A model generated the notes under the pieces. It had not been told where the DNA came from, searched no databases, and worked only from the letters and a program-made list of their open reading frames with translations. This document shows, in pieces, positions 1,723 to 58,484 of a stretch of DNA of 64,000 nt (position 1 is the stretch's first letter; every line of letters begins with the position of its first letter). Origin of the DNA: an uncultured Allomuricauda sp. (GTDB lineage: Bacteria; Bacteroidota; Bacteroidia; Flavobacteriales; Flavobacteriaceae). The position numbers and the translations under genes were made by a program. The stretch is from NCBI GenBank assembly GCA_963677115.1, contig OY781874.1, positions 2,937,618-3,001,617 on the forward strand, given 5' to 3'.

Positions 1723-2538
1723 ATGGAAAAAGCACAGGAATGGTTCGATTATGCAATTGAATTGGCAAAAGAATTTGGTCCCAAACTAGTCACCGCACTC
1801 ATCATTTATTTGGTGGGTATGTGGGTTGTGAACAAAATTATTAAGGGTACCCGAAAGGTGATGTCCAAAAGTAAGTACGACCTATCTCTCCAGAAATTTT
1901 TACTGAATCTGTTTTCTTGGGCATTAAAGGTATTCTTGATAATCATTGTAATTTCGAGACTGGGGGTAGATGTCACCACCTTTGCCGCAGTGATAGCTGC
2001 TGCCGGGCTTGCTGTGGGCTTAGCGCTGCAAGGCTCGCTCTCCAATTTTGCCGGAGGTGTACTCATCATGATTTTTAAACCGTATAAAATCGATGACCTT
2101 ATTGAAGCACAAGGTGTTTTGGGCAAAGTAAAAGGCATCGAAATCTTTACCACAAAACTGGTGACCCCTCAAAACAGACTGGCCATTGTTCCCAACGGTG
2201 CCATGGCGAACGGGAACATTATCAACTACACTGCGGAAGGAAAAGTAAGGGTAGATGCCGTGGTTGGCGTGGGGTACGATGAGGATATCAAAAAAACCAA
2301 GGAAGTTTTATTAAAGGTGCTGACCTCCAACAAAAAAGTGCTCAAAGATCCGGCGCCTTCCGTAAATGTTTTGGAACTGGCGGACAGCTCCGTGAACTTT
2401 GCCGTTCGTCCCTATTGCAAACCGGAAGATTATTGGGATGTTTATTTTGCTACCTATGAAAACAGTAAACTTGCGTTGGATGAGGCGGGAATTGAAATTC
2501 CATACCCGCACCAAGTGGAAATCCATAAACAGGGATGA
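1723..2538 (+). CDS. mscS: Small-conductance mechanosensitive channel (MscS family)
   Basis: AAGLAVGLALQGSLSNFAGGVLI and PYKIDD motifs; C-terminal GIEIPYP. Confidence 0.92.
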   Translation: MEKAQEWFDYAIELAKEFGPKLVTALIIYLVGMWVVNKIIKGTRKVMSKSKYDLSLQKFLLNLFSWALKVFLIIIVISRLGVDVTTFAAVIAAAGLAVGLALQGSLSNFAGGVLIMIFKPYKIDDLIEAQGVLGKVKGIEIFTTKLVTPQNRLAIVPNGAMANGNIINYTAEGKVRVDAVVGVGYDEDIKKTKEVLLKVLTSNKKVLKDPAPSVNVLELADSSVNFAVRPYCKPEDYWDVYFATYENSKLALDEAGIEIPYPHQVEIHKQG

Positions 2539-2599: not shown

Positions 2600-2706
2600 C
2601 TACACCCCAGTGTAATTCGCTGGGGTAATTTGTTTCAACTCAGCTTTAATATCATCTGAAACGTCCAAGGTCTCGATAAAATCGGCAATGGATTTTTGGT
2701 TGATTT
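2600..2706 (-). pseudogene. Orphan duplicate of the last 34 codons of purB (INQKSIADF...ITPANYTGV-stop)
   Basis: 2604-2706 is identical to 10358-10460; it ends GTG TAG where the intact gene ends GTT TAA; an in-frame TAA lies immediately upstream, so it is not translated. Confidence 0.9.
2604..2706. repeat. 103-bp perfect direct repeat, left copy (att-like)
   Basis: Base-by-base identity with 10358-10460. Confidence 0.95.
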
Positions 2707-3043
2707 ATCCCAATAAAGAATGGCATCCAAGCACTCTACAACCTTTACTCCCTCTTCCGCTTACAGCTAGGTTTTGTTTTTCCGAAAAGCATCTATATCA
2801 GATGTTTACTTTACTTCTAACAATAAAAATACTACATTTAAGCATCAAAAGCTTACAATAAACCTTTTTAGATTATTGATAAGCTATTTGTTTTTCAAGC
2901 CTGCCTAGGCAGATAACCCCCTTAGAAAACTTTCAACTTCTATTGTAAACCTTTTCGGTTGAGGACCCTAAGTTTTTAACCATGAAGGTTTGGTACGTAT
3001 TGTGGGTACGCTAAATCTTATTAACACTTAACCTATATTAATC

Positions 3044-3565
3044 ATGAAAAAACTACTGATTACCCTATGCCTGCTGGCGGTAAACGCCTGCAGCAACAAT
3101 GACGACAAACCCGTGAACCCAGTGGACTCCCTGCCGCCCATTACCCAAACGGGGGAGGATACGTTTGCATGCCTAATAAACGGCAAGCCCTTTTTTTCTA
3201 GTTATAAAAGGCGAGCTTCATATACATATACCGAAGATGGATATACCTTTTCAATAAGTGGCTCAAGATATGATGATGAAGGAATTAAAACAGTTAGCTT
3301 GGTGGGTTTGGATATTTCAAATTTAATTGAAGAAAAAAATTATTTATTAGAGTCTGAAATGAGTGGCAATTTTTATGGCAGGTACGCTATATACAATTCA
3401 GGTATAACAGCTTACTCTTCATCACATGATACCCCTGGTGTTTTAAACATTACTAAAATTGATTTGGATGAGGGCTTTGTTTCTGGAACATTTGAATTTA
3501 TAGCTAATGACGGAGAAGGAAATATTTTAAGTTTCACCGACGGCCGTTTCGACCTAGAATTTTGA
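3044..3565 (+). CDS. Variable lipoprotein A1 (DUF6252-like)
   Basis: Lipobox AVNAC; LPPITQTGEDTFACLING N-terminal block; SGTFEF...DGRFDLEF C-terminus; family name from recall. Confidence 0.7.
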   Translation: MKKLLITLCLLAVNACSNNDDKPVNPVDSLPPITQTGEDTFACLINGKPFFSSYKRRASYTYTEDGYTFSISGSRYDDEGIKTVSLVGLDISNLIEEKNYLLESEMSGNFYGRYAIYNSGITAYSSSHDTPGVLNITKIDLDEGFVSGTFEFIANDGEGNILSFTDGRFDLEF

Positions 3566-3597
3566 ACAGCTTAAAATCAACCACTTAAAAATTAAAG

Positions 3598-3631
3598 GCA
3601 GCATACCCCAAATCCATAAATTTTAAATCTA
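3598..3631 (+). repeat. 34-nt pre-gene element, copy 1
   Basis: GCAGCATACCCCAAATCCATAAATTTTAAATCTA, starting 40 nt before the ATG at 3638. Confidence 0.9.
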
Positions 3632-3637
3632 CAAATC

Positions 3638-4159
3638 ATGAAAAAACTACTGATTACCCTATGCCTGCTGGCGGTAAACGCCTGTAGCAACACCGATGAC
3701 AAGCCCGTGAACCCAGTGGACACCCTGCCGCCCATTACCCAGACAGGGGAGGATACGTTTGCATGCTTAATAAACGGCAAACCCTTTTTTTCTAGTAAAG
3801 ACAGAAGTGCATTTTATACCTATGCTGATGGTGCTTACACCTTGGGAATCAGTGGGACTAGAAATGATGATATTGGCTTAAGGTCAATTCTTTTAGCAGG
3901 AATCGATATTAAAGAAGGGATTAAAGAAGGAATCTGTCCACTTAATTCTGAAAATAGTGGAAGCTTTGACGCCACCTATCTTATAGATGGAGGAGTCACG
4001 CTGAATTCATCAACAACTGATGAGGCTCCAGGTATTTTAACTATCACTCGATTTGACCTAGAGGAATTTATTGTTTCGGGCACCTTTGAGTTTACGGTGG
4101 TAGATGATGAAGGTAATAAATACGAAATGACCGACGGCCGTTTCGACTTAGAATTTTGA
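3638..4159 (+). CDS. Variable lipoprotein A2 (DUF6252-like)
   Basis: Same conserved ends as A1, divergent middle. Confidence 0.7.
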   Translation: MKKLLITLCLLAVNACSNTDDKPVNPVDTLPPITQTGEDTFACLINGKPFFSSKDRSAFYTYADGAYTLGISGTRNDDIGLRSILLAGIDIKEGIKEGICPLNSENSGSFDATYLIDGGVTLNSSTTDEAPGILTITRFDLEEFIVSGTFEFTVVDDEGNKYEMTDGRFDLEF

Positions 4160-4191
4160 ACAGCTTAAAATCAACCACTTCAAAATTAAAG

Positions 4192-4225
4192 GCAGCATAC
4201 CCCAGATCCATAAACTTTAAATCTA
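4192..4225 (+). repeat. 34-nt pre-gene element, copy 2
   Basis: GCAGCATACCCCAGATCCATAAACTTTAAATCTA, 40 nt before the ATG at 4232. Confidence 0.9.
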
Positions 4226-4231
4226 TATAAT

Positions 4232-4966
4232 ATGAAAAGAACAATTTTTATTATGCTTTCCTTTTTCATCTTCCAGAGTTGTGAAAAGGACGATACCGCA
4301 TTGGATTGCCAAGCCGACTGCACTACTGTGCAGGGCCAAATAGTTACGGCCAAAGGAGAGCCCTTGCCCAATATATCTGTGGCTTTTGATCATTTTGTCA
4401 GCCAAGGAATTGGAAGTTCCCGTCGAAAAATCAAAGAAACAAGGACTGACGAGAATGGTTATTATACCATGAAATTTTTTATTAAAGATGATGAACTCGG
4501 TGTCGAAGCTGATGGACTTTTTGAATTGAATATCGATTACAGCAACCTTGATTCCAAGGTTTACATGAGTACAAATCAATATTATAAACACACGATGTAT
4601 TATTTGGATAAACGGGACACTACAATCGTTTTGGACTTCTATAACCCTAAAAAAGCCTATATCACGGTAAACCTCAATGGTTTTAATCCAAGTACTGAAG
4701 ATGATTATTTTAAGTTAGAATCATTTTTTCCTTCTGGAATAAAAAATGAGAAGAATAGTATATGGGGTTTTGATTATGTATTGGGTTATGGTACAAGTTA
4801 TAAAGCAACCTCGGCCAATTCTAAAATTGACAGTGTTTTAGTTGCGGAAAATGATAATAATTGGATCAGTATCCGGAGATGGAAGGGTGGTGTAAACTTG
4901 ATAGATGAGGACACTATTTTTTTTGTTCCGGAAAACAATTCAATTAAGCTGGATTTTATCTATTGA
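4232..4966 (+). CDS. Variable lipoprotein B1, unknown function
   Basis: Lipobox FQSC followed by EKDD; TVQGQIVT...GEPL resembles a carboxypeptidase-regulatory/prealbumin-like beta domain. Confidence 0.7.
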   Translation: MKRTIFIMLSFFIFQSCEKDDTALDCQADCTTVQGQIVTAKGEPLPNISVAFDHFVSQGIGSSRRKIKETRTDENGYYTMKFFIKDDELGVEADGLFELNIDYSNLDSKVYMSTNQYYKHTMYYLDKRDTTIVLDFYNPKKAYITVNLNGFNPSTEDDYFKLESFFPSGIKNEKNSIWGFDYVLGYGTSYKATSANSKIDSVLVAENDNNWISIRRWKGGVNLIDEDTIFFVPENNSIKLDFIY

Positions 4967-5006
4967 TGAAATACAAGACCATATACTATTTCTAACCATT
5001 TGTTAA

Positions 5007-5040
5007 GCAGCATCCCCCAGATCCATAAACTTTAAATCTA
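5007..5040 (+). repeat. 34-nt pre-gene element, copy 3
   Basis: GCAGCATCCCCCAGATCCATAAACTTTAAATCTA, 40 nt before the ATG at 5047. Confidence 0.9.
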
Positions 5041-5046
5041 CAAATT

Positions 5047-5553
5047 ATGAAAAAACTACTGATTACCCTATGCCTGCTGGCGGTAAACGCCTGTGGCAAC
5101 AATGACGACAAACCCGTGAACCCAGTGGACACCCTGCCGCCCATTACCCAAACGGGGGAGGATACGTTTGCATGCTTAATCAATAGAAAACCTTTTTTTT
5201 CCAGTTACAAGAGACGAGCTACTTACTCAGGAAATTCTATTAGTATAAGTGGTTCGAGACAGGATGATATGGGACTAAGATCTGTGTCTATTCAGGGTTT
5301 TAATCTAGAAATCATTGAGGAAGGCTTGTATGTGTTAGAATTAGAGAAAAGCGGTAGTTTCTTCGGAATTTACTTAGTTGATGGAGGACTCACACTTGAT
5401 ATTGGAACCTCTGATAATTTACCTGGTACGCTAACCATCACTCGATTTGATCTGGATGAATTTATCGTTTCGGGCACCTTTGAGTTTACGGTGGTAGATG
5501 ATGAAGGTAATAAATACGAAATCACAGACGGCCGTTTCGACTTAGAATTTTGA
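5047..5553 (+). CDS. Variable lipoprotein A3 (DUF6252-like)
   Basis: Conserved ends; shorter variable segment than A1, A2 and A4. Confidence 0.7.
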   Translation: MKKLLITLCLLAVNACGNNDDKPVNPVDTLPPITQTGEDTFACLINRKPFFSSYKRRATYSGNSISISGSRQDDMGLRSVSIQGFNLEIIEEGLYVLELEKSGSFFGIYLVDGGLTLDIGTSDNLPGTLTITRFDLDEFIVSGTFEFTVVDDEGNKYEITDGRFDLEF

Positions 5554-5585
5554 ACAGCTTAAAATCAACCACTTCAAAATTAAAG

Positions 5586-5619
5586 GCAGCATACCCCAGA
5601 TCCATAAACTTTAAATCTA
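5586..5619 (+). repeat. 34-nt pre-gene element, copy 4
   Basis: GCAGCATACCCCAGATCCATAAACTTTAAATCTA, 40 nt before the ATG at 5626. Confidence 0.9.
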
Positions 5620-5625
5620 CATAGT

Positions 5626-6144
5626 ATGAAAAAACTACTGATTACCCTATGCCTGCTGGCGGTAAACGCCTGTAGCAACAATGACGACAAACCCTTGAAC
5701 CCAGTGGACACCCTGCCGCCCATTACCCAAACCGGAGAGGATACATTTGCATGCTTAATAAACGGCAAGCCCTTTTTTTCCAGCAAAGACAGAAGAGCAT
5801 CTTATACGTTTACGGATGGCGCTTATACCTTGGGAGTAAGCGGTTCAAGAAATGACGAGATTGGATTGAGAACTATTTCAATACAGGGGATAGATGTTGC
5901 CCCATTAAACGAAGGTATTTATAATCTTGAATCTGAAAAAAGCGGAAATTTTAGTGGACTCTATGGAATAGATGGAGGTCTATTACTTGATGTAGGAACT
6001 TCTGATAATTTACCGGGTACGCTGACCATCACTCGATTTGATCTGGATGAATTTATCGTTTCGGGCACCTTTGAGTTTACGGTAGTAGATGATGAAGGTA
6101 ATAAATACGAAATCACCGAAGGCCGTTTCGACCTAGAATTTTGA
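5626..6144 (+). CDS. Variable lipoprotein A4 (DUF6252-like)
   Basis: Conserved ends; 5' variable part resembles A2, 3' part resembles A3. Confidence 0.7.
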   Translation: MKKLLITLCLLAVNACSNNDDKPLNPVDTLPPITQTGEDTFACLINGKPFFSSKDRRASYTFTDGAYTLGVSGSRNDEIGLRTISIQGIDVAPLNEGIYNLESEKSGNFSGLYGIDGGLLLDVGTSDNLPGTLTITRFDLDEFIVSGTFEFTVVDDEGNKYEITEGRFDLEF

Positions 6145-6176
6145 AAAACTCAAAGTCAACTAATTAAAAATTAAAG

Positions 6177-6210
6177 GCAGCATACCCCAGATCCATAAAC
6201 TTTAAATCTA
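6177..6210 (+). repeat. 34-nt pre-gene element, copy 5
   Basis: GCAGCATACCCCAGATCCATAAACTTTAAATCTA, 39 nt before the ATG at 6216. Confidence 0.9.
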
Positions 6211-6215
6211 CACTT

Positions 6216-6950
6216 ATGAAAAGAACAATTTTTATTATGCTTTCCTTTTTCATCTTCCAAAGTTGTGAAAAGGACGATACCGCTTTGGAATGCCAGACCG
6301 ACTGCACTACAGTGCAGGGCCAGATAGTTACGGCCAAAGGAGAACCCTTGCCCAACATACCTGTGGCTTTTGATTACCAATACATTCTTGGTATTGGTTC
6401 CAAAGTCAGAAGGATAAAAAAAATAACGACCGATAAAAATGGCAATTATAAAATGCAATTTTTTGTCAAGGACGAGGAACTTACCGGAGACGCTGGGGGA
6501 TATTTTGAATTGGTAATCGATTATAGCAACCTTGATTCCGAGGTTTACATAAGTACGGATAGTTATTACTCACTTGCAGTTGGACAGATTAGCAATCGTG
6601 ACACTACGATCACACTGGACTTTTATAACCCTAAAAAAGCCTATATCACGGTAAACCTCAATAGTTTTAATCCGAGTACTGAAGATGATTCATTTATTAT
6701 AAGATCATTTTACCCAACAGGGCGTAAGATTGGCCAAAATAGTTTATTGGATACTGAATATCAAATTGCACAAGGCACAGAGGTTAAAGCTAATTCAGTT
6801 AATACCATTTCAGACAGTGTTCTTGTAGCATTGGAAGACATCAACCGAATTGGTGTGAATAGGAGGAAAAACGGTGTGGAATTGGAGACTGAATACTATA
6901 CAATTTATGTGGACAAGAATAACGAAATAGAATTGAACTATAGTTATTAG
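6216..6950 (+). CDS. Variable lipoprotein B2, paralog of B1
   Basis: Nearly identical first 48 aa and internal RDTTI.LDFYNPKKAYITVNLN.FNPSTEDD block; same length (244 aa). Confidence 0.7.
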   Translation: MKRTIFIMLSFFIFQSCEKDDTALECQTDCTTVQGQIVTAKGEPLPNIPVAFDYQYILGIGSKVRRIKKITTDKNGNYKMQFFVKDEELTGDAGGYFELVIDYSNLDSEVYISTDSYYSLAVGQISNRDTTITLDFYNPKKAYITVNLNSFNPSTEDDSFIIRSFYPTGRKIGQNSLLDTEYQIAQGTEVKANSVNTISDSVLVALEDINRIGVNRRKNGVELETEYYTIYVDKNNEIELNYSY

Positions 6951-6981
6951 GGTGTTATATATAAAAAACATTTTTAATGGC

Positions 6982-7015
6982 GCAGCATCCCTCAAATCCA
7001 TAAACTTTAAATCTA
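6982..7015 (+). repeat. 34-nt pre-gene element, copy 6
   Basis: GCAGCATCCCTCAAATCCATAAACTTTAAATCTA, 40 nt before the ATG at 7022. Confidence 0.9.
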
Positions 7016-7021
7016 TAAATT

Positions 7022-10000
7022 ATGAAAAAACTACTGATTTGCTTGACATTATTGACCTGCTTTGGCCTCTCCGCCCAATTGCATATCGACCTTGAGGTCG
7101 CCGACCGCACCAACCAAGCGTTCAGCTTGTTGGACAAAAGCAAGGTTCCCCACAACATGCTACTGGATTATGGGTACGATTTTGTGGACGTGACCAACTA
7201 CGACGGCGTGCTCCGGGACAACAATTATCTAGTACCCTCCGTGTACCGCGACCTGTACAACAGTGTGGTCTCCATGCGTACCACCCTAACCGTGCCGGAA
7301 CTGGTGGACCCTATGCTCATGGAACAGGGGTGGAAGAGCACTTCCAAGACGGAGCTGAACAAACTGGGCAAAGGGGCCATGGCCTCGGCAGTGGTCCTCA
7401 ACGGCATGTACTACCAGTATGCCCGCTTTCGCCCCGATGCGTTGCAGAACGGCCTTATTGCGGTGGAGAACAACAAGTACCGCGATGTGTATGTGGGCAC
7501 GGAGTGGCAGGACCCCTACGAGGAAATGGAAGTGTTTGCTATGGCGCTACCCGTTACGCAGATCAGCAACTCCAAGGTGTCCGTGGTGCTGGGCAAAACG
7601 GATTGGCGCACCAACCAACCGGGCCTGGTGGACGAATTTGCCGTGGATTTTGGCGATGGCGGCGGGTTTGAGCCCATGTTGTTGGGCGTATCCGTAGATC
7701 ATTATTTTGAACAGGACGGGGAGTACGCGTGGACGTTTCGGCTAAAGCTCACGGACGGTACCTTTAAGTACTGCCGCACCCCGGTAAAGGTCACCGGTAA
7801 GGCCAAACAACAGACCCTGACGGCCCGTAACCCTGACTGCGATAAGAAACCCTGGGTAGAGACCATTACAGCCGCTAAGGGGTATATGGGGATAAAGGGA
7901 GTGGCCAATTTACAGATAGCCCCTGCCAAAGAATGTACTAAAATCCACAAACCCTTGATTGTTGTAGAAGGGTTTGATACGGGTTTGATGGGAAATGATC
8001 CAGAATGGGGTGATACACACCTTAAATCTTTTTTGGATGAGGTGAGGTTTAAGTCTCAAAGTCAAGAATTGCAAAACCTTATTACCGAAGACACCGAAGA
8101 AAGTTTTGACATCATCTACGTAAACTGGGAAGATGGCACCGATTGGCTGCAGCGCAATGCCTATGCCCTGGAGGCGGTGATAGAATGGGTGAACAACAAT
8201 AAGGAGGAAGATGCAGCGCCCAACGTTATCTTGGGCCAGAGCATGGGCGGGGTCATTGCCCGGTATGCCCTTCGCGATATGGAGAACAACAATGTGGACC
8301 ACGATACCAGCCTCTACATAAGCCACGATGCCCCGCACCAAGGTGCCCACGTGCCCCCCGGCTTTTTATTTGCCGCACGCCATGTGCTCAACGAGCTTAT
8401 TACCACGCCCATTGGCGATGTTACGGTAGCCGTTGCCAGTAATGAGTTTCCGGTGGACGATGCCCGCCAATTGATAGATAGGCCCGCTGTAAAGCAAATG
8501 CTCATCAATTATGTGGACTCCAATTACGAACTGAACAACACGGTGCACAAGGCATGGCAGACCGAGCTCAAGAACATGGGCTACCCGCAGCAAACACGCA
8601 ATATAGCCATCAGCAATGGTAGCCATTGCGCAGAAGGCTACGGGTTGGAACCCGGCAAAAGCCTTTTCTGGCTGCACGGTAGGGCCTCTACCAGCCTTAT
8701 TGGGGACTTCCTGCTCTTTCTTTATCCAGCCTTAGGAGGAATCCCCGGTGCGGCTTTTGGGGATATTCCTGCCGCTATACTGGGTTTTGTACCGGGAAAG
8801 ACCACCCTTAAAACGGATTTTCAGGCATGGGCCATACCAGGGAACGTAGAAGACTTGATTTATAAGGGATGGATCCAGTACGAAAAGAAAAGTTTATGGA
8901 TTTTGCCCATAACCCGCACCCTTACCAATAAAGCCATTAAATGGCAGGGAGAGAATGTGTATTGGGCAAATTTTCCGGGAGGGGCTATGCCGTTTATCAA
9001 TACTGTAGATGATTTTAATATAAATGACGAGGAAACTATAGTGGACTTTTTGTTGAATTATGATATCACCTTGGAAACACCCCCGGACCTTAATTTTATA
9101 CCCACGACCAGTGCCCTGGATGTAGGCGGCAATAATGTGGCACTTACCCAGGAAGACCATTACAGAGTCTATACCATGGATGCGGAACTACCGGATGGGC
9201 TAAAGATTCAATTTGATAATTTTGCCACCACTTACAATATTTCTGGGAAGAATACGGATCATATTTCCTTTAATAGGGCCAATGGCGATTGGTTGGCCGA
9301 TGAGCTTAAGAATGCAGGCACCGTTTTCGATTGTACATTTTTATGTGGTTCCAGTTTTGTGATCGAGGGAAGCAGCAAGCTTTGTGAACAAGAAATTTAT
9401 TTTGTGGATGTAAAGGGAGATATGCAGGTAGAATGGAGTTCCGATAACATGGAGGCAGCATTACCCAGCGACCCCAACAGCCCGGCAACATCGTTTACCA
9501 CCTCACCAAATTCCTATAACGAAACATTGACCATTTATGCCATTTTGACCTCCGAAAGCTGTGCAGGAGACCCCATAGTTCTGGAAAAAACTGTCCATGT
9601 GGGCAAGCCTGGGCTACCATCCAACTTATGGGGACCCGAAATTGTTTTAACAGGAGCTTTGGTCAAGTATTATGGCGGACCTGCAGAGGGGGCTGATTCT
9701 TATGAATGGTGGCTGCCCCATCCTTTTGAAGTAGTAGACCAGTTTGATTATTTTGGGGATAATTGGCAAATATTAAGTACCAATACCTATTATGATGTGG
9801 CCAATGTATTTACTGGATATGCAAAACATGAGGGGTTGGTACAGCTTATGGGCGTAAACGAGTGTGGGCGGGGACCTGCTATAACAATGCATGTAAAACA
9901 TGTCGGAGAGGGAGAAATTGGTGAAGGAGGTATTCCTTTGGAACAGAATCCAGGATACCAGTCGAACCCTAATTCAAATGAAACCGAGGATGGTGTAGTG

Positions 10001-10255
10001 ATCTATCCCAATACCGCAACGGACGAGGTAAACATCACCTTGGAATCCTCCATGGGTCCAGAAGGGATTGCTCCATCAAAAATCTTGGGTATAGCTGTAT
10101 ACCAACAGCTACAACAAGCACCTAAAAAGCAACTGATTTTTTCCTCACCTAAGACTTCAGCATTGATAGATGTCAGGGATTTAAATGATGGGTACTATTT
10201 TGTAGTGATAGAAACCGATAAAGGCCCGGTGACCAAAATTCTTTTGGTAAAATAA
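7022..10255 (+). CDS. T9SS type-A cargo protein with an alpha/beta-hydrolase (lipase/esterase-like) domain
   Basis: Signal peptide ending LSAQ; GQSMG nucleophile elbow at 8234-8248 (aa 405-409); IVVEGFD and DAPHQGA motifs; C-terminal IYPNT...DVRDLNDGYYFVVIETDKGPVTKILLVK sorting domain. Confidence 0.78.
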   Translation: MKKLLICLTLLTCFGLSAQLHIDLEVADRTNQAFSLLDKSKVPHNMLLDYGYDFVDVTNYDGVLRDNNYLVPSVYRDLYNSVVSMRTTLTVPELVDPMLMEQGWKSTSKTELNKLGKGAMASAVVLNGMYYQYARFRPDALQNGLIAVENNKYRDVYVGTEWQDPYEEMEVFAMALPVTQISNSKVSVVLGKTDWRTNQPGLVDEFAVDFGDGGGFEPMLLGVSVDHYFEQDGEYAWTFRLKLTDGTFKYCRTPVKVTGKAKQQTLTARNPDCDKKPWVETITAAKGYMGIKGVANLQIAPAKECTKIHKPLIVVEGFDTGLMGNDPEWGDTHLKSFLDEVRFKSQSQELQNLITEDTEESFDIIYVNWEDGTDWLQRNAYALEAVIEWVNNNKEEDAAPNVILGQSMGGVIARYALRDMENNNVDHDTSLYISHDAPHQGAHVPPGFLFAARHVLNELITTPIGDVTVAVASNEFPVDDARQLIDRPAVKQMLINYVDSNYELNNTVHKAWQTELKNMGYPQQTRNIAISNGSHCAEGYGLEPGKSLFWLHGRASTSLIGDFLLFLYPALGGIPGAAFGDIPAAILGFVPGKTTLKTDFQAWAIPGNVEDLIYKGWIQYEKKSLWILPITRTLTNKAIKWQGENVYWANFPGGAMPFINTVDDFNINDEETIVDFLLNYDITLETPPDLNFIPTTSALDVGGNNVALTQEDHYRVYTMDAELPDGLKIQFDNFATTYNISGKNTDHISFNRANGDWLADELKNAGTVFDCTFLCGSSFVIEGSSKLCEQEIYFVDVKGDMQVEWSSDNMEAALPSDPNSPATSFTTSPNSYNETLTIYAILTSESCAGDPIVLEKTVHVGKPGLPSNLWGPEIVLTGALVKYYGGPAEGADSYEWWLPHPFEVVDQFDYFGDNWQILSTNTYYDVANVFTGYAKHEGLVQLMGVNECGRGPAITMHVKHVGEGEIGEGGIPLEQNPGYQSNPNSNETEDGVVIYPNTATDEVNITLESSMGPEGIAPSKILGIAVYQQLQQAPKKQLIFSSPKTSALIDVRDLNDGYYFVVIETDKGPVTKILLVK

Positions 10256-10353
10256 AAGTAACTGCCTATCCACAGCAACCAAGATGGACTAGATTTTTGA
10301 TTTTGATTCATCTTGAGCAGAAATCTAAAGTCTCGAACTGGCAGAATTTTAGA

Positions 10354-11697
10354 TTAAACCCCAGTGTAATTCGCTGGGGTAATTTGTTTCAACTCAGCTT
10401 TAATATCATCTGAAACGTCCAAGGTCTCGATAAAATCGGCAATGGATTTTTGGTTGATTTTTTCGTTGGTACGCGTTAAACCTTTTAAGGCTTCGTATGG
10501 GTTGGGATAGCCCTCTCTTCGTAAAATGGTCTGAATGGCCTCGGCAACCACGGCCCAATTATCCTCTAAATCTTGCTCGAACTTGGATTGGTTCAGTACC
10601 AATTTGCCCAATCCTTTTAAAGTAGACTGGAAACCAACTATGGTATGTGCAAAAGGCACCCCCACATTTCGTAAAACAGTACTGTCCGTAAGATCACGTT
10701 GTAATCTGGAAATCGGGAGTTTGGCGGATAAATGTTCAAAAATGGCATTGGCCAAGCCCAAATTTCCTTCCGAATTTTCAAAATCGATAGGATTCACCTT
10801 GTGCGGCATGGCCGAAGAGCCAACTTCTCCTTTTTTGATTTTCTGTTTAAAGTAATCCATGGAAATGTAGGTCCAAAAGTCGCGATCCAAATCAATCAAA
10901 ATGGTGTTGATGCGTTTAAGGCAATCGAACAAAGCCGCCATATGGTCGTAGTGCTCGATTTGGGTAGTGGGGAAGGAGTGGTGCAAGCCCAGTTTCTCCT
11001 GTACAAACTGCTTTCCAAAGGCTCTCCAATCATTATTGGGATACGCCACCTTGTGTGCGTTGTAATTCCCTGTGGCGCCACCGAACTTAGCAGCACTGGG
11101 TATGTCGTTCAATAAATTGAACTGCTCTTTAAAACGTTCCACAAACACGTCGATTTCCTTGCCTAAACGGGTAGGGGAAGCGGGCTGACCGTGGGTCCTG
11201 GCCAACATAGGGATGTTTTTCCATGTCTTGGCCAGTTCCTTCAATTTTTCAAAAACCTCCAAATAGGAAGGAACGTACACATCGTTCATCGCCTCTTTGA
11301 TGGACAAAGGAATGGCCGTGTTGTTTATGTCTTGGGAAGTCAGTCCAAAGTGAATGAACTCCTTGTATTTCTGAAGGTCTAAAGCATCAAACTTTTGTTT
11401 GATGAAGTATTCCACGGCTTTTACATCGTGATTGGTAGTTTTTTCAATATCCTTGATGGCTTGGGCGTCTTCGGAAGAAAATTCTTGATAGATTTTCTGC
11501 AATTCGGGAAACAGCGCCGTATTGAAATCGGCCAATTGCGGCAAAGGGACTTCGCAAAGCGCTATAAAATATTCAATCTCTACTTGAACACGGTATTTGA
11601 TCAGGGCTTCTTCCGAAAAGTAGTCTTTTAAGGCTTTGGTTTTGTTTCTATATCTGCCGTCAATCGGCGAAATGGCGTTTAGTTGTGTCAGGGACAT
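10354..11697 (-). CDS. purB: Adenylosuccinate lyase
   Basis: LNAISPIDGRY N-terminus, TNHDVKAVEY, signature GSSAMPHKVNPIDFENSEGN; start moved to the ATG at 11697. Confidence 0.96.
   Translation of the reverse strand: MSLTQLNAISPIDGRYRNKTKALKDYFSEEALIKYRVQVEIEYFIALCEVPLPQLADFNTALFPELQKIYQEFSSEDAQAIKDIEKTTNHDVKAVEYFIKQKFDALDLQKYKEFIHFGLTSQDINNTAIPLSIKEAMNDVYVPSYLEVFEKLKELAKTWKNIPMLARTHGQPASPTRLGKEIDVFVERFKEQFNLLNDIPSAAKFGGATGNYNAHKVAYPNNDWRAFGKQFVQEKLGLHHSFPTTQIEHYDHMAALFDCLKRINTILIDLDRDFWTYISMDYFKQKIKKGEVGSSAMPHKVNPIDFENSEGNLGLANAIFEHLSAKLPISRLQRDLTDSTVLRNVGVPFAHTIVGFQSTLKGLGKLVLNQSKFEQDLEDNWAVVAEAIQTILRREGYPNPYEALKGLTRTNEKINQKSIADFIETLDVSDDIKAELKQITPANYTGV
10358..10460. repeat. 103-bp perfect direct repeat, right copy (inside the purB 3' end)
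   Basis: Identical to 2604-2706. Confidence 0.95.
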
Positions 11698-12805: not shown

Positions 12806-13490
12806 TAAGATTCTCCACCAAAACCGGTAGTCCCTTGGCAGCGGTTTTTGGGATTACGGTCAGGTTATCAAAATCTGTAGATCGAATGTTGGGCTTGGGG
12901 TCAATAAAGTATATTGGAGTCTGTTTTGGGGCATAATGAATCAAACTTGCCGCAGGATAGACTTGCATAGAGGTGCCCACTATAATCAAAATTTCGGCTT
13001 GTTGGGCAATCTGTACTGCGGTCTCCAACATGGGTACCATTTCGCCAAACCAAACAATATGTGGACGTAGCTGATGTCCGTTTTTGTCTGTATCGCCCAA
13101 AATCAAGTCCTTTTTCCAATCCAATATATGGTTTTCATCCATCGTGCTCCGCACTTTGAACAATTCTCCGTGCAAATGCACCACGTGGGAACTGCCGGCC
13201 TGCTCGTGCAGATTATCTACATTTTGAGTTATAATACTGACATCAAAAGCCTGTTCCAGTTCTGCCAATGCTAAATGACCTTTGTTTGGGACAACCTCCA
13301 ATAATTGTCTTCTCCTTTGGTTGTAAAATTCAAGTACAAGTTCTGGGTCTTTTGCAAACCCTTGTGGCGAGGCCACTTGCATCACATCATGGCCTTCCCA
13401 AAGGCCATTTTCGTCACGAAAGGTCTTAAGACCACTTTCGGCACTCATGCCAGCACCTGTTAACACAACTATTTTTTGTTTTTCCATCAT
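12795..13490 (-). CDS. cobB: NAD-dependent protein deacylase (sirtuin)
   Basis: GAGMSAESG, TQNVDNLHE, HG, LRPHIVWFGE and GTS..VYPAA motifs. Confidence 0.92.
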   Translation of the reverse strand: MMEKQKIVVLTGAGMSAESGLKTFRDENGLWEGHDVMQVASPQGFAKDPELVLEFYNQRRRQLLEVVPNKGHLALAELEQAFDVSIITQNVDNLHEQAGSSHVVHLHGELFKVRSTMDENHILDWKKDLILGDTDKNGHQLRPHIVWFGEMVPMLETAVQIAQQAEILIIVGTSMQVYPAASLIHYAPKQTPIYFIDPKPNIRSTDFDNLTVIPKTAAKGLPVLVENLINN

Positions 13491-14626
13491 TTATTTTTCC
13501 CCAACAGATTTAAAATTATGCTTTTGAACATAGAAATTCCAGTCGTAATTAGCTCATCCGGAAAATCATAGTCTGCATTGTGCAGGGCTGGAGTGGATTC
13601 ACCGGCCCCAATGCCGAACATTGAAGTTTTGTAGGATTTGGAAAACCAACCAAAATCCTCACCGAATTTAAACGGAACAGGACGTTCTACAGTTGGAAAA
13701 TTGTTGGATGAGGCAGCCTGTCTTACCAAGTGGGTACATTCGTTGTGAACGGAACTAGCCGGAAAATATTCCATCCAATCCAGTTTAGACCCCAAGTGCC
13801 ATTGTTTGCAAACCTTGTCCACAATCCCGGTTAATTTGGATTGCAGTTTCTTCATTTGGTCTGTGTTCCAAGTACGAAGCGTGTAATGCAATTCAGCATT
13901 TGCTGGTGAAATACCGTATGATGTTTGGCCCATTTTGAGGTGTATCGGTGTTACAATGGCAAATTTTGGGTCCATTGGTTCCGGCGCGTTCAATTTTGAT
14001 ATGCTTTGAACAATTTCAGCCAAGGCCAGAGCCGGATTTATGCCATTCTCAGGCTCTGATGCATGGGATTCTTTGCCTTTTAGCTGTATGGAAACACTTA
14101 TCACCTCTGCAGAAAATCCCTGTTCTGTGATGAGTATGCTGTGCAGTGGCACTTTGGGAATATTGTGCAAGGCGAAGACATAATCGGTCTGCAATCCTTT
14201 AAATTTTTTGTCCTTAACCATTCTCAGTGCTCCTTCACCGGTTTCCTCGGCCGGTTGAAAAAGTAAGATTATAGTTCCTGATTTTAAGTGGCTTACCGAC
14301 AGCCATTTTGCTATACCGGCCATAATGGTCATATGGCCATCATGCCCGCATTTGTGGGAGACTCCATTTGTATTGGACTTATGCGGAAAGGTATTGGTTT
14401 CCTGAATCGGCAATGCATCCAATTCGCATCTTAGGGTTATTCTGGGTCCGTTATCAGAGAATTTAAAAACTACCGCCATACCGGCACCTCCAATCCCTTC
14501 AATTATTTTGCTGGGGCTGTAGGGAGCAATAAATTCTTTTATGATATCCGCCGTTCCCTGTTCCCTGTTGGATAGGTCTGGGTCTGCATGCAATTTATGC
14601 CTTAATGCCACGAGTTGATTATCCAT
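13487..14626 (-). CDS. M20-family amidohydrolase
   Basis: RHKLHADPDLS, LRCELDALP, HKCGHDGH, FQPAEE, EDF and LHN motifs; start moved to the ATG at 14626. Confidence 0.88.
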   Translation of the reverse strand: MDNQLVALRHKLHADPDLSNREQGTADIIKEFIAPYSPSKIIEGIGGAGMAVVFKFSDNGPRITLRCELDALPIQETNTFPHKSNTNGVSHKCGHDGHMTIMAGIAKWLSVSHLKSGTIILLFQPAEETGEGALRMVKDKKFKGLQTDYVFALHNIPKVPLHSILITEQGFSAEVISVSIQLKGKESHASEPENGINPALALAEIVQSISKLNAPEPMDPKFAIVTPIHLKMGQTSYGISPANAELHYTLRTWNTDQMKKLQSKLTGIVDKVCKQWHLGSKLDWMEYFPASSVHNECTHLVRQAASSNNFPTVERPVPFKFGEDFGWFSKSYKTSMFGIGAGESTPALHNADYDFPDELITTGISMFKSIILNLLGKNK

Positions 14627-16376
14627 TGGCAGCTGGTTTTCTTGATTGAAGCCATCCATTATGATTGCTGGCTGCTTGTTCTGCCCATTGTGTGATGCGC
14701 GGTCCAAAACATTCCAATATGGCATCAACACCGATGACGGTTCCTTTGGCCAGACGTCCAAGTAGTGCGATGGGCAAGGTGTTTTCAGATGTATCCAATA
14801 TATATCCGTGGTCATCCGTGGCAACACCGAGTTCATCATGAACGGCTTGAATCATCCCATCCGACAGCATATTTCTTACCAACGAAGATGTTACTTCCTT
14901 TATTTTGGGCTGGTCCATTACCGAGTCCACCATGATGTTGACCGTTATTGACTTGTTAGGATTTGCCAACCTCCAACCGTCATCTACCAGTTCAATTTCA
15001 GGATTGTTCACATAGTCTAAATTAAGCACACCGGCTTTTTTTAGGGCAATCAATTGTTGAATGGCCTCTACCGGAGGTCCGTAAGAGTATCTTTTGGTAG
15101 ATTCATCCAACATTATGACCTTGGCAAAAACATTATCTGGGCATGCACTATAAGAAAGCTGTTTATATATCGAAGGTTGACAATGTCGCCAAACCTGTCC
15201 AATACAAAAATCCAAGCTAATCGCATGTTGTCCCGTGGCCATGCCTACGAAACTTTCCATCATGGCCCCCACAGGCTCATCCTGAGGCACAATTGCGGGG
15301 TCATCCAAAGTTGGATCTTTTAGCCATTTTTTGATGATATCTTCTATCCTGGGTTGTTCGAGTTGGTTGGGGTTGATGTTCTTGGGCAGTTCCAAGAAAA
15401 TATCCGCAGCGATCGGAGCGAATGCATCAAGCAAAAAACCAATATCCTCCGCAGTTTTTTGGGTATCTCCGTTTCCGATCAGGATTTCAAAATTATCCAA
15501 TTGTGTGGCTGAAGGGGCAAACCAATCGTCTATTTCTTTATTTAATGGCTTTGGAACCGGGGGCAGGCCATCCAACGAAAAAGGAACTAATAGATTTTCA
15601 ATCTTTTGGATTGGAGCGTAGGTAAATTCCCGGGTTTTCTTGTTCTCGATTTGAAAATCACCAAATTCTTTCGCTATTCGGCGCGCCACGTCGATCATGG
15701 TAAGGCCAAACCCTCGTATTCCGATGATACTTTTGGAGTCCAGATGTTGACTGGACAAAATATTGGAAAGGGGATAGGCGTTTTGGAAGAGACTAATTCC
15801 GTTGTGGTTGTCCACATGATTCTGCCATTTGGCCATTTGGCCAGAAATTTTGGTAGGTTGGTGTCCTATAGTCAGTAAAATTTCGTCAAAATCACCGTAG
15901 GTATTGTTGCTTGTGCATATATTGATTTTTTTATTTTCCATTAGTTGAAGTTCATGCACTTTGTCTATACGCATAGTAGCGTATCCTTTTTCCACCAAGG
16001 GGTCGATCAAAGAACAGAACCTTTGGTTCAGATATTTGCCGATTTTACGCCGAGGGGGATAGGCATCCACCTCTCTGGATATATTATGATCTATCCAATC
16101 ATGGTAAGATGGGAATGATGGAATGTTGAATTCTTTGAAACGGATTTCTTTTCTTTCATCGAGTTCCAAAATCCGTTCGGTGATGTTTATCCAATTGGAG
16201 CTGGACTGGGCGGTATCGTATACATGACCTCCACCAAAATTCCCGGAAGCCTCGAACAAGGTAAAATGGAGGTTTTTAAAGCTGTTTTTCTTTATCAATT
16301 GAGCGACCAAGCACTCCAAGGCATATCCACCCCGTGGACCAATACCTATAATACCAAGGTTGCGTTTATCGGCCAT
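14619..16376 (-). CDS. FAD/NAD(P)-binding oxidoreductase (NAD_binding_9-like)
   Basis: IIGIGPRGGYALE dinucleotide-binding motif, LLTIGH, second Rossmann motif RGFGLTMIDV. Confidence 0.75.
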   Translation of the reverse strand: MADKRNLGIIGIGPRGGYALECLVAQLIKKNSFKNLHFTLFEASGNFGGGHVYDTAQSSSNWINITERILELDERKEIRFKEFNIPSFPSYHDWIDHNISREVDAYPPRRKIGKYLNQRFCSLIDPLVEKGYATMRIDKVHELQLMENKKINICTSNNTYGDFDEILLTIGHQPTKISGQMAKWQNHVDNHNGISLFQNAYPLSNILSSQHLDSKSIIGIRGFGLTMIDVARRIAKEFGDFQIENKKTREFTYAPIQKIENLLVPFSLDGLPPVPKPLNKEIDDWFAPSATQLDNFEILIGNGDTQKTAEDIGFLLDAFAPIAADIFLELPKNINPNQLEQPRIEDIIKKWLKDPTLDDPAIVPQDEPVGAMMESFVGMATGQHAISLDFCIGQVWRHCQPSIYKQLSYSACPDNVFAKVIMLDESTKRYSYGPPVEAIQQLIALKKAGVLNLDYVNNPEIELVDDGWRLANPNKSITVNIMVDSVMDQPKIKEVTSSLVRNMLSDGMIQAVHDELGVATDDHGYILDTSENTLPIALLGRLAKGTVIGVDAILECFGPRITQWAEQAASNHNGWLQSRKPAANG

Positions 16377-47969: not shown

Positions 47970-48007
47970 AAAACCAACTTACACGGACCTCGTCAGAGGT
48001 TGATTTT
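47970..48007 (-). promoter_or_regulatory. Candidate L19 ribosomal-protein leader hairpin
   Basis: aaaatcaac...gttggtttt stem in the 5' UTR between the promoter box and the rplS ATG. Confidence 0.45.
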
Positions 48008-57059: not shown

Positions 57060-58484
57060 TTAAGAGAACTTCTTGCTCAGGTCCTCGATGTACTTTCTGA
57101 ATTGCTTATCGGTCTCTGCAAGATTGTCCACTGTTTTACAGGCATGGAGCACAGTTGCATGATCACGTTTTCCAATTTGTGAGCCAATGCTCGCCAATGA
57201 AGCCTTGGTGAATTTTTTTGCAAAGAACATGGCCAATTGTCTTGCTTGAACAATGTGGCGTTTTCTTGTTTTGGATTGTAGTGTGGCCACATCCATTTCA
57301 AAGTAATCCGATACTACTTTTTGAATGTAATCAATGGATACTTCACGCTTGGTATTTTTTACGAACTTTTCCACTACTTGTTGGGCCAATTCCAAAGTAA
57401 CCTCGCGTTTATTGAAAGATGATTGTGCAATCAAGGAAATGATAGCACCTTCCAACTCACGGATATTGGTCTTGATGTTCTTGGCCACATGGTCAATGAT
57501 CTCTTCGGGCATTTCAACACCGTCTCGGTACAACTTGTTCTTTAAGATGGACACGCGGGTTTCGTAATCAGGACTTTGCAGTTCTGCGGATAGCCCCCAT
57601 TTAAAACGGGAAAGCAAACGCTGTTCAATGTCCTGCATATCCACAGGAGCCTTGTCCGATGTCAAAATCACTTGCTTGCCATTTTGGTGCAAGTGGTTGA
57701 ATATGTGGAAGAATACATCTTGCGTTCCAGATTTACCGGACAGGAATTGTACATCATCAATAATAAGTACATCTATCAATTGGTAAAAGTGGATGAAATC
57801 GTTTCGGGTATTCTTTTTTACGGACTCTATATATTGCTGGGTAAATTTCTCGGCAGAAATATAAAGTACCGTCTTTTCAGGGTACTTGTCTTTAATTTCA
57901 ACACCAATGGCATGGGCCAAGTGGGTTTTTCCCAACCCTACACCACCAAAAACCAATAGTGGGTTAAAGGATGTCCCTCCCGGTTTGTTGGCCACGGCCA
58001 TGCCGGCCGACCTTGCCAAACGGTTGGAGTCACCTTCCAAGAAATTGTCGAAATTATAGTTCGGGTTTAACTGGGATTCAATTTTAATGTTTCGAATACC
58101 GGGGATGACAAATGGATTTTTAAGCTCTGGACTTTTGGAAGTGATCGGCACATCCAATTCTTGTGGTCCTACGGGCGAACGGTTAGAACTTGGAATCTGT
58201 TCCGTGAAAGGTTCCTTGTTACCGTATTTGTTTTCCATTTTTATAACGTAGATCAGCTTGGCGTTGGCACCCAACTCGCGGGTCATGGCAACTTTTAAAA
58301 GCTTCACGTAATGTTCTTCGAGCCATTCGTAGAAAAACTTACTGGGTACTTGGATGCTGAGCGCCTTATCCGTCAACTTGATAGGCTTGATAGGCTCAAA
58401 CCAAGTTTTGAATGCCTGCGGTTGGATGTTATCTTGGATAAAAGCCAAACAGTTGTTCCATACGGAATTAGCAGTAGCACTCAT
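57060..58484 (-). CDS. dnaA: Chromosomal replication initiator
   Basis: NPL..FGG.GLGKTHL, IIDDVQF, RL.SRF.WG, RELEGA, R.H.TV.HA. Confidence 0.97.
   Translation of the reverse strand: MSATANSVWNNCLAFIQDNIQPQAFKTWFEPIKPIKLTDKALSIQVPSKFFYEWLEEHYVKLLKVAMTRELGANAKLIYVIKMENKYGNKEPFTEQIPSSNRSPVGPQELDVPITSKSPELKNPFVIPGIRNIKIESQLNPNYNFDNFLEGDSNRLARSAGMAVANKPGGTSFNPLLVFGGVGLGKTHLAHAIGVEIKDKYPEKTVLYISAEKFTQQYIESVKKNTRNDFIHFYQLIDVLIIDDVQFLSGKSGTQDVFFHIFNHLHQNGKQVILTSDKAPVDMQDIEQRLLSRFKWGLSAELQSPDYETRVSILKNKLYRDGVEMPEEIIDHVAKNIKTNIRELEGAIISLIAQSSFNKREVTLELAQQVVEKFVKNTKREVSIDYIQKVVSDYFEMDVATLQSKTRKRHIVQARQLAMFFAKKFTKASLASIGSQIGKRDHATVLHACKTVDNLAETDKQFRKYIEDLSKKFS

Follow-up and report, generated by a model that had tools for sequence, protein, structure and literature searches.

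The duplicated purB gene end of an uncultured Allomuricauda: a probable case of gene-end displacement and gene conversion at a hotspot without mobile elements

In the genome of an uncultured Allomuricauda sp., the 3' end of purB is found twice without a single mismatch, once in the functional gene and once beside mscS, and an island is located between the two copies. The original prediction for this locus interpreted the repeat as an attachment site, and its perfect identity as a sign of either recent insertion or ongoing recombination. Thus the questions are how the second copy arose and what keeps it identical to the gene end. Here we analyze the locus within a stretch of 64,000 nucleotides, hereafter called the window, which is placed in Flagellimonas/Muricauda/Allomuricauda by the names of its homologues. 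The explanation that we regard as reasonably probable is that mscS-purB is a mobile-element-free hotspot, where an old purB-anchored insertion displaced the gene end and gene conversion keeps the copies identical. The case combines known kinds of phenomena, namely an integrase-free hotspot, gene-end displacement, and concerted evolution.

The repeat and the island between its copies

The copies at 2604-2706 and 10358-10460 are identical at 103 of 103 nucleotides, synonymous positions included, with a start-to-start spacing of 7754 nt (Table 1). Extended to the stop codon (2600-2706 versus 10354-10460), the repeat comprises 107 nt and contains two differences, one at the wobble position of the final Val codon (GTG in the left copy, GTT in the right copy) and one in the stop codon (TAG and TAA, respectively). 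The base-for-base match, its loss at the last codon and stop, and the hairpin at 2571-2592, which is recovered by fold prediction, are thus as originally described. Both copies spell the same 34 PurB residues, that is, the old end equals the new one. The left copy has no start codon and is directly preceded by an in-frame stop, and therefore is a non-coding orphan. Besides the paralogous island genes, the 64-kb window contains no further long repeat, and an exact match of 103 nt in 64 kb cannot have originated by chance.

The same duplication is found in independent sequence data. The mscS-repeat-island junction is present with the exact 103 nt in ENA metagenome contigs L001 and L002, and the island-repeat-purB junction in L004 and L005; these contigs were assembled with k=141 from two independent ENA metagenome samples and are 98.7-99.6% identical to the window. 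In sequencing run X7, which represents a strain 98-99% identical to the window, a 103-nt unitig identical to the window is covered at 78x and the four flanks at 39-53x. Runs X1-X4 contain 94% of the window's words, and their unitigs are interrupted 30 nt into the repeat from either end of each copy (2633, 2677, 10387, and 10431), as expected of a true repeat. These breaks of short-read graphs are the point in favor of an assembly artefact, the left copy being a misjoin, but with both junctions spanned by k=141 contigs from two independent metagenomes, the repeat unitig at about twice the flank depth, and the same structure in at least three lineages, the misassembly that was named in the original prediction as a refutation is contradicted and practically inconceivable. 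In X1-X4, the depth of the island equals that of the flanks, and no sizeable empty-site or amplified subpopulation is seen by read depth in these runs (k=31 unitigs, too short to bridge 103 nt). The excision or amplification through the repeat that had been suggested is therefore possible in principle but not visible in the read depth.

The context of the two copies points to the direction of the displacement. The outer flank of the left copy (the hairpin 2571-2592 and the sequence ACAAATA) is homologous to the purB-downstream spacer of the relatives L121, L114, L125, and L107, in which the site is empty; local alignment scores to this spacer are 16-19 for the outer flank of the left copy versus 5-9 for that of the right copy. 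Since the left flank matches the native purB-downstream spacer and the right flank does not, the comparison supports the left copy as the displaced native purB end, which would have stayed in its native context beside mscS. The earlier view of the orphan as a displaced ancestral gene end gains support from the same homology.

Table 1. Coordinates of the features at the mscS-purB locus of the window
Feature	Position	Strand	Basis and remarks
mscS	1723..2538	+	Pfam MS_channel domains; left core gene of the hotspot, convergent with purB at empty sites
Native mscS-purB spacer with A/T-rich hairpin 2571-2592	2539..2599		Fold and homology to spacers of relatives
Orphan purB 3' end (stop and ~35 codons), non-coding; exact part 2604-2706	2600..2706	-	Present in L001, L002
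G/C-rich hairpin ACCCCAGTG-TAATT-CGCTGGGGT followed by AATTTGTTTC	2604..2636	+	Terminator scan; fold z = -4.2
Junction and 101-nt lineage-specific spacer	2707..2807		No homologue in L086, L089, L091, L092
Left island end, non-coding and conserved, with motif AACAATAAAAATACTACATTTAA	2808..2955	+	72-75% identity to island-left regions of L086, L089, L091, L092
Six lipoprotein genes	3044..6950	+	Four DUF6252 (3044, 3638, 5047, 5626), two 244-aa CarboxypepD_reg-like (4232, 6216)
1077-aa secreted protein	7022..10255	+	PKD-like, PGAP1-like alpha/beta-hydrolase, and T9SS C-terminal sorting domain stretches
Right-end spacer of the island	10256..10353		Differs from the native purB-downstream sequence
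Functional purB, 447 aa	10354..11697	-	Pfam Lyase_1 and ASL_C; last 107 nt (10354-10460) are the right copy

Between the copies lie 7.65 kb with seven genes, all on the plus strand and directed at purB. The lipoprotein genes constitute a three-gene unit of ~2 kb (DUF6252, DUF6252, 244-aa protein) in two copies, and the copy number of this unit varies between strains and lineages, with joints 5602>7073, 4711>3016, and 3203>5424 in X7 and X11-X13. For the 1077-aa protein, for which all Pfam hits are below the curated cut-offs, 493 homologues were found, many of them named T9SS type A sorting domain proteins, and the look-up of the exact protein gave no match. At the left border, the junction sequence ATCCCAATAAAG is identical in X7, X10, X11, and X12, and the lineage-specific spacer, together with the same junction, is common to the ~10% diverged lineage of X11 and X12. 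The conserved non-coding left end next to it is probably a promoter or regulatory region of the island.

Of the seven island genes, six follow a conserved leader of ~58 nt (GCAGCATACCCCAGATCCATAAACTTTAAATCTA...ATG), and these six belong to non-homologous families (DUF6252, the 244-aa proteins, and the 1077-aa protein); the leader occurs in the range 2982-7040, with copies at 3598, 4192, 5007, 5586, 6177, and 6982. These six genes also have similar signal peptides, and in L089 the first gene of the island is likewise preceded by such a motif; the leader is possibly a shared promoter or translation-initiation module. The G+C content within the gene for the 1077-aa protein (7200-9000) is 0.50-0.57 versus 0.42 for the window, and many spurious long ORFs are found there on both strands. 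Elsewhere in the window, the only Rfam match is the L19-Flavobacteria ribosomal protein leader at 47975-48002, upstream of trmD/rplS (34.1 bits, gathering score 31.5). An M20 peptidase ORF (13487-14839) and an NAD_binding_9 ORF (14619-16376) overlap by ~220 nt as listed; since the peptidase of L004 is called as 378 aa, the long N-terminal extension of the window's peptidase is probably untranslated.

The mscS-purB locus in related genomes

In a scan of a genome collection the best PurB match had 92% identity, and closer relatives were found through homologues of the 1077-aa island protein. Genes mscS and purB are convergent and adjacent in outgroup genera (Croceitalea, Saonia, Maribacter, and others), and mscS is adjacent to purB in L007, L009, L017, L018, L028, L050, and at least 13 Flagellimonas-like metagenome loci. 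The direct mscS-purB adjacency on which the original prediction depended is thus found, both in outgroups and in metagenomes. The Flagellimonas-like loci with an empty site are as close to the window as those with an island (80-87% nucleotide identity of purB), and the spacers of empty sites vary from 30 to 379 nt, some of them being occupied by REP-like palindromes.

At the same locus, flanked by mscS and purB, L086, L089 (F. nanhaiensis), L090, L092, and L099 have orthologues of the island. The large island protein is 63-76% identical among species, the 1077-aa protein matches its counterparts in orthologous islands of other species at 63-68%, PurB of the same relatives is 91-96% identical, and the number of lipoprotein genes differs among the orthologous islands. 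Other loci carry other cargo, namely an IrrE-type peptidase with a DUF4411 protein in L006, a DUF1963 protein in L119, and a beta-lactamase-family protein in L097; an esterase gene is added beside purB in L086, besides the island, and an amidohydrolase is further cargo at the locus in L092. The gene content between the same two core genes is variable and includes no mobility genes, which is the pattern of mobile-element-free hotspots. None of ~120 loci has the cargo genes of relatives (esterase, DUF1963, and others) beside purB, and thus no donor configuration was seen among them.

Some further observations concern individual relatives. In Allomuricauda sp. CAU 1633 (L006, 11524-13247), the IrrE/Peptidase_M78-type protein has 384 aa and an HEXXH motif and adjoins the DUF4411 (PIN-like) protein; this pair looks like a toxin-antitoxin or defence module. 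In a JGI metagenome contig (L091, 7998-12983), a T9SS/lipoprotein island with a ~35-nt purB-end remnant leftmost is located between a histidine-utilisation operon and imuB/dnaE2. Since mscS and purB are not nearby in this contig, either the island moved together with the hairpin or its flanks were rearranged. REP-like palindromes with the core TCGAGCGCAGTCGAGA, often in the form GTCAYNTCGAGCGCAGTCGAGA..., occur in mscS-purB spacers and at island borders of relatives (L086 7494-7540 and 13297; L090 3262; L091 7743 and 12997-13331; spacers of L118, L103, and L114). The "empty" spacers of 213-379 nt hold up to several copies and the 64-kb window none. As candidate island termini in L086, L090, L091, and L092, these palindromes were rejected, because they are found also in the empty mscS-purB spacers of relatives and are absent from the window.

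Remnants of purB ends accompany the other inserts as well. Two serial orphans are present in L086, one of 116 nt, located between the island and the esterase gene and 91% identical to the organism's own purB, and one of ~35 nt that adjoins mscS. A decayed orphan of ~92-125 nt is found with the DUF1963 cargo of L119, and an orphan of ~97-100 nt with the beta-lactamase-family gene of L097; remnants of ~35-45 nt are found in L006, L091, and L092. The short remnants always retain the stop, the hairpin ACCCCNG-N9-CNGGGGT, and the T-rich tail, and all repeat segments overlap the hairpin. Counted from the stop, the inner ends of the long orphans are at -107 (window), -116 (L086), -97 to -100 (L097), and -92 to -125 (L119), and the four independent ends fall into a range of ~25 nt (~92-116 nt from the stop). 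Judging from these remnants, gene-end displacement apparently recurs at this locus with other cargo, in at least four separate insertions, each leaving an orphan.

The hairpin in the coding end of purB may have a function of its own. Together with AATTTGTTTC, positions 2604-2626 score as a plus-strand intrinsic terminator, and the hairpin of the right copy (10358-10380) is positioned to terminate the convergent island operon. The G/C-rich stem with 6-7 pairs is restricted to the clade, the same residues being encoded by A/T-richer codons in other Flavobacteriaceae. As relatives with empty sites and spacers of 30-43 nt have no second hairpin between mscS and purB, the purB coding end is probably the terminator of the convergent gene. 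Once DNA has been inserted, transcripts of mscS would end at the left copy and those of the island operon at the right copy, and such a role of each copy would explain retention of the hairpin part in every orphan.

Entry of the island with or without a recombinase

About half of bacterial gene-transfer hotspots have no evidence of mobile elements, about a quarter have no integrase or transposase, and the route of entry is debated; in hotspots that lack mobile elements, gene content is renewed through recombination at the core genes on either side (PMC5635113). Homology-facilitated illegitimate recombination was held responsible for the displaced gene ends, and the orphaned 3' regions that they leave, in rhs, CDI, and T6SS effector-immunity loci (PMC5361080). 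For the mscS-purB locus, we infer that incoming DNA was probably anchored by homology in the conserved purB gene, independently of an integrase, and that either its other end was joined illegitimately in a homology-facilitated recombination or a circle entered by single-crossover insertion-duplication. A purB end would have come with the incoming piece, pushing the last ~107 nt of the native gene beyond the insert to the side of mscS. Afterwards, intrachromosomal gene conversion, presumably RecA-dependent, would have overwritten the orphan repeatedly with the sequence of the functional gene end, which would account for the zero mismatches, synonymous sites included. The limits of identity coincide with the ends of homology, at 2706/2707 and immediately before the last-codon and stop differences. 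In addition, the orphan and purB would provide homology arms for the exchange of cassettes between lineages.

The main alternative is a true attachment site, where a tyrosine or serine recombinase, either lost or acting in trans, would insert modules at the 3' end of purB, each module bringing a replacement end; the crossover would be situated either in the 7-9-7 inverted repeat specific to the clade or at a distance of ~100-115 nt from the stop. The layout is indeed the classical one, in which the inserted DNA is flanked by the intact target gene and, opposite to it, by an orphan gene end, and empty sites exist. Moreover, the serial orphans of L086 resemble tandem accretion, the hairpin is present in all repeat segments, has the form of a core site, and occurs only in the clade with insertions, and the inner ends cluster at -92 to -116. 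However, of the features that define integrative islands, direct repeats of the target end and an unoccupied site in relatives are present at this locus, and an integrase gene is not. Pfam revealed no integrase or transposase in the seven island ORFs, in 40 further ORFs of the window (housekeeping genes only, dnaA among them), or in the cargo of relatives, where the original prediction proposed to look for integrases next to purB; overall, six cargo types and ~35 related loci contain no recombinase gene. Both the inner and the outer ends of the duplicated segment vary between events, no motif common to the cargo-side flanks of independent orphans was found, and a terminator would explain the hairpin just as well.

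Other searches bear on the same question. The tRNA scan detected no tRNA genes, Rfam gave no match in the region, and in the literature searched the purB 3' end was not described as a target of integration. A degenerate 103-nt pattern had no match in a metagenome contig collection, and no attB-like or attP-like contig of this lineage was seen there; a shorter hairpin pattern yielded 32 loci, 7 of which are unrelated terminators or chance matches. Thus the claim of an attachment site is supported in part, by the gene-end repeats and the empty sites, but not by a recombinase gene in the island, in the window ORFs analyzed, or in the related cargo. We consider an attachment site unlikely, and less likely than homology-driven displacement.

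A related and still more doubtful possibility is that the hairpin is the recognition site of a trans-acting or host recombination system that inserts recombinase-less, co-oriented cassettes serially, each with a replacement end. If true, a housekeeping gene would have nucleated an integron-like array of cassettes at this locus, and both the clustered orphan ends and the serial orphans would be accounted for. The clustered inner ends could reflect a preferred site, as clustering is not obviously predicted by random illegitimate joints. An integron in the proper sense was rejected, since the region contains no integrase and no match to a curated RNA or structure. Gene dnaA (57060-58484, minus strand) places the probable replication origin ~47 kb from the hotspot; a Xer-dependent IMEX at the terminus-located dif was rejected, given that the locus is origin-proximal and the repeat is a purB coding end.

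Age of the duplication, identity of the copies, and known parallels

The homology-driven displacement of an old purB end, followed by gene conversion, makes a statement about age that can be compared with the lineage represented by X11 and X12. Compared with the window, the flanks of this lineage have only 89-90% identity (mscS, 102 differences over 974 nt; purB, 168 over 1520 nt), yet the borders of its repeat (2604 and 2706) and its island junction (ATCCCAATAAAG...) are unchanged, and a 69-nt unitig at summed depth is common to both of its copies. Within genomes, the copies differ at 0 of 103 sites in the window, 0 of 103 in X7, and 1-2 of 103 in X11/X12 (sites 2609 and ~2637), the latter copies having been pieced together from ends of k=31 unitigs and not from a contiguous assembly. 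Between the lineages, the copies of X11/X12 and those of the window differ at 13 of 103 sites. For comparison, the purB 3' ends of different species differ by 10-20%, and the orphan of L086 has drifted to 91%. As the same junction and borders occur in a ~10% diverged lineage with its own repeat sequence, the duplication is old; as the copies match within a genome and differ between lineages, their identity is due to gene conversion and not to recent insertion. By this comparison of sequences, the orphan follows the purB of its own lineage, which constitutes concerted evolution.

The same lineage provides evidence of exchange through the hotspot. Identity between the window and X11/X12 is ~89% in the body of mscS, 98-99% from ~2509 to ~6054, and ~90% thereafter, and inside the 98-99% stretch a patch of 39 nt (2637-2675) has the sequence of X11's own purB. 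The stretch at 98-99% identity indicates a recent exchange between lineages through the hotspot, and the simplest reading of the patch is that the orphan was converted from purB after this exchange. We rejected the idea that a window-type circle had integrated into the X11/X12 lineage in the Campbell manner, as the right copy and the right end of the island in this lineage are of the X11 type.

Selection on the orphan as a terminator or regulatory element might preserve its identity to purB with no recombination involved, and the terminator-like hairpin part is indeed kept in all decayed orphans, sometimes with an improved T-run. Yet this signal is confined to ~35 nt, the remaining ~70 nt decay or vanish in other lineages, and the X11/X12 orphan tracks the lineage-specific synonymous changes of purB, which is not expected from selection on a non-coding copy; such selection is a highly improbable cause of the identity. 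A recent insertion, with the zero mismatches as a sign of youth, would agree with the 103/103 identity at synonymous positions too and with the unchanged island in all related strains at 98-99% identity, but in view of the same junction and borders in a lineage with 89-90% identical flanks, the 13 lineage-specific changes present in both copies, and the orthologous islands at the same locus in other species, it is barely credible. Of the two causes of identity offered originally, recombination is thus borne out by copies that track their own lineage, and recent insertion is not.

Several known systems resemble the locus in part. Islands inserted by recombinases at the ends of protein-coding genes include the SGI1-type islands at the trmE 3' end (PMC8409611) and those of dusA-specific integrases (PMC4482086). 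The locus shares with integrase-borne islands, ICEs, and IMEs the duplicated gene end as flanking direct repeats, the intact target, and the empty site in relatives. In contrast to them, it lacks genes for an integrase, an excisionase, or transfer, the island is old and keeps its synteny across species, independent duplicated segments end differently, and the identity of the repeat seems to be kept by conversion rather than being a sign of a recent crossover. It is also similar to mobile-element-free hotspots and to minimal mobile elements (MMEs; the concept as used in PMC1175089) in having alternative gene sets or none between the same core genes and no mobility genes, and in homologous recombination tracts that enter from the flanks, such as the 98-99% stretch (~2509-~6054). 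The difference from the hotspots and MMEs described is the duplication of a flanking gene end, each long-lived insert here being bounded by an orphan purB end. The displacement described in rhs, CDI, and T6SS loci (PMC5361080) has in common with it a conserved anchor gene whose end is replaced, an old end left downstream with a piece of coding sequence, and the accumulation of serial orphans (two in L086); however, the new end there is a different toxin domain, whereas here the purB end is synonymous and it is the genes after it that are new.

Duplicate tuf genes and rRNA operons are known examples of dispersed repeats that evolve in concert through gene conversion. As in these, the copies at the mscS-purB locus are identical within a genome and diverged between lineages, and a mosaic patch matches the donor copy; in contrast, a gene of an essential pathway is paired here with a non-coding fragment of itself, 103 nt in length, that lies on the far side of an island at a distance of 7.75 kb. 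Clusters of attC sites with no integrase are known as CALIN. The similarity of the locus to integron cassette arrays and CALIN is one of resemblance only, and concerns co-oriented, promoter-poor cassettes, each followed by a hairpin-containing repeat, with no integrase nearby; unlike these systems, the locus has no IntI, its 7-9 bp stem lies inside a coding sequence and is not of the attC type, and Rfam gives no match.

The mscS-purB locus keeps the scars of its history, with at least four apparent insertions at one housekeeping gene end, orphans that can be dated, and one orphan that still seems to be homogenised with its parent. For annotation, it teaches the caution that a perfect repeat of a gene end does not by itself identify an attachment site or a recent insertion. 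It also appears to be a natural case of gene conversion between a gene and its own 103-nt non-coding fragment. Overall, the locus offers a concrete and testable model of gene gain with no integrase.
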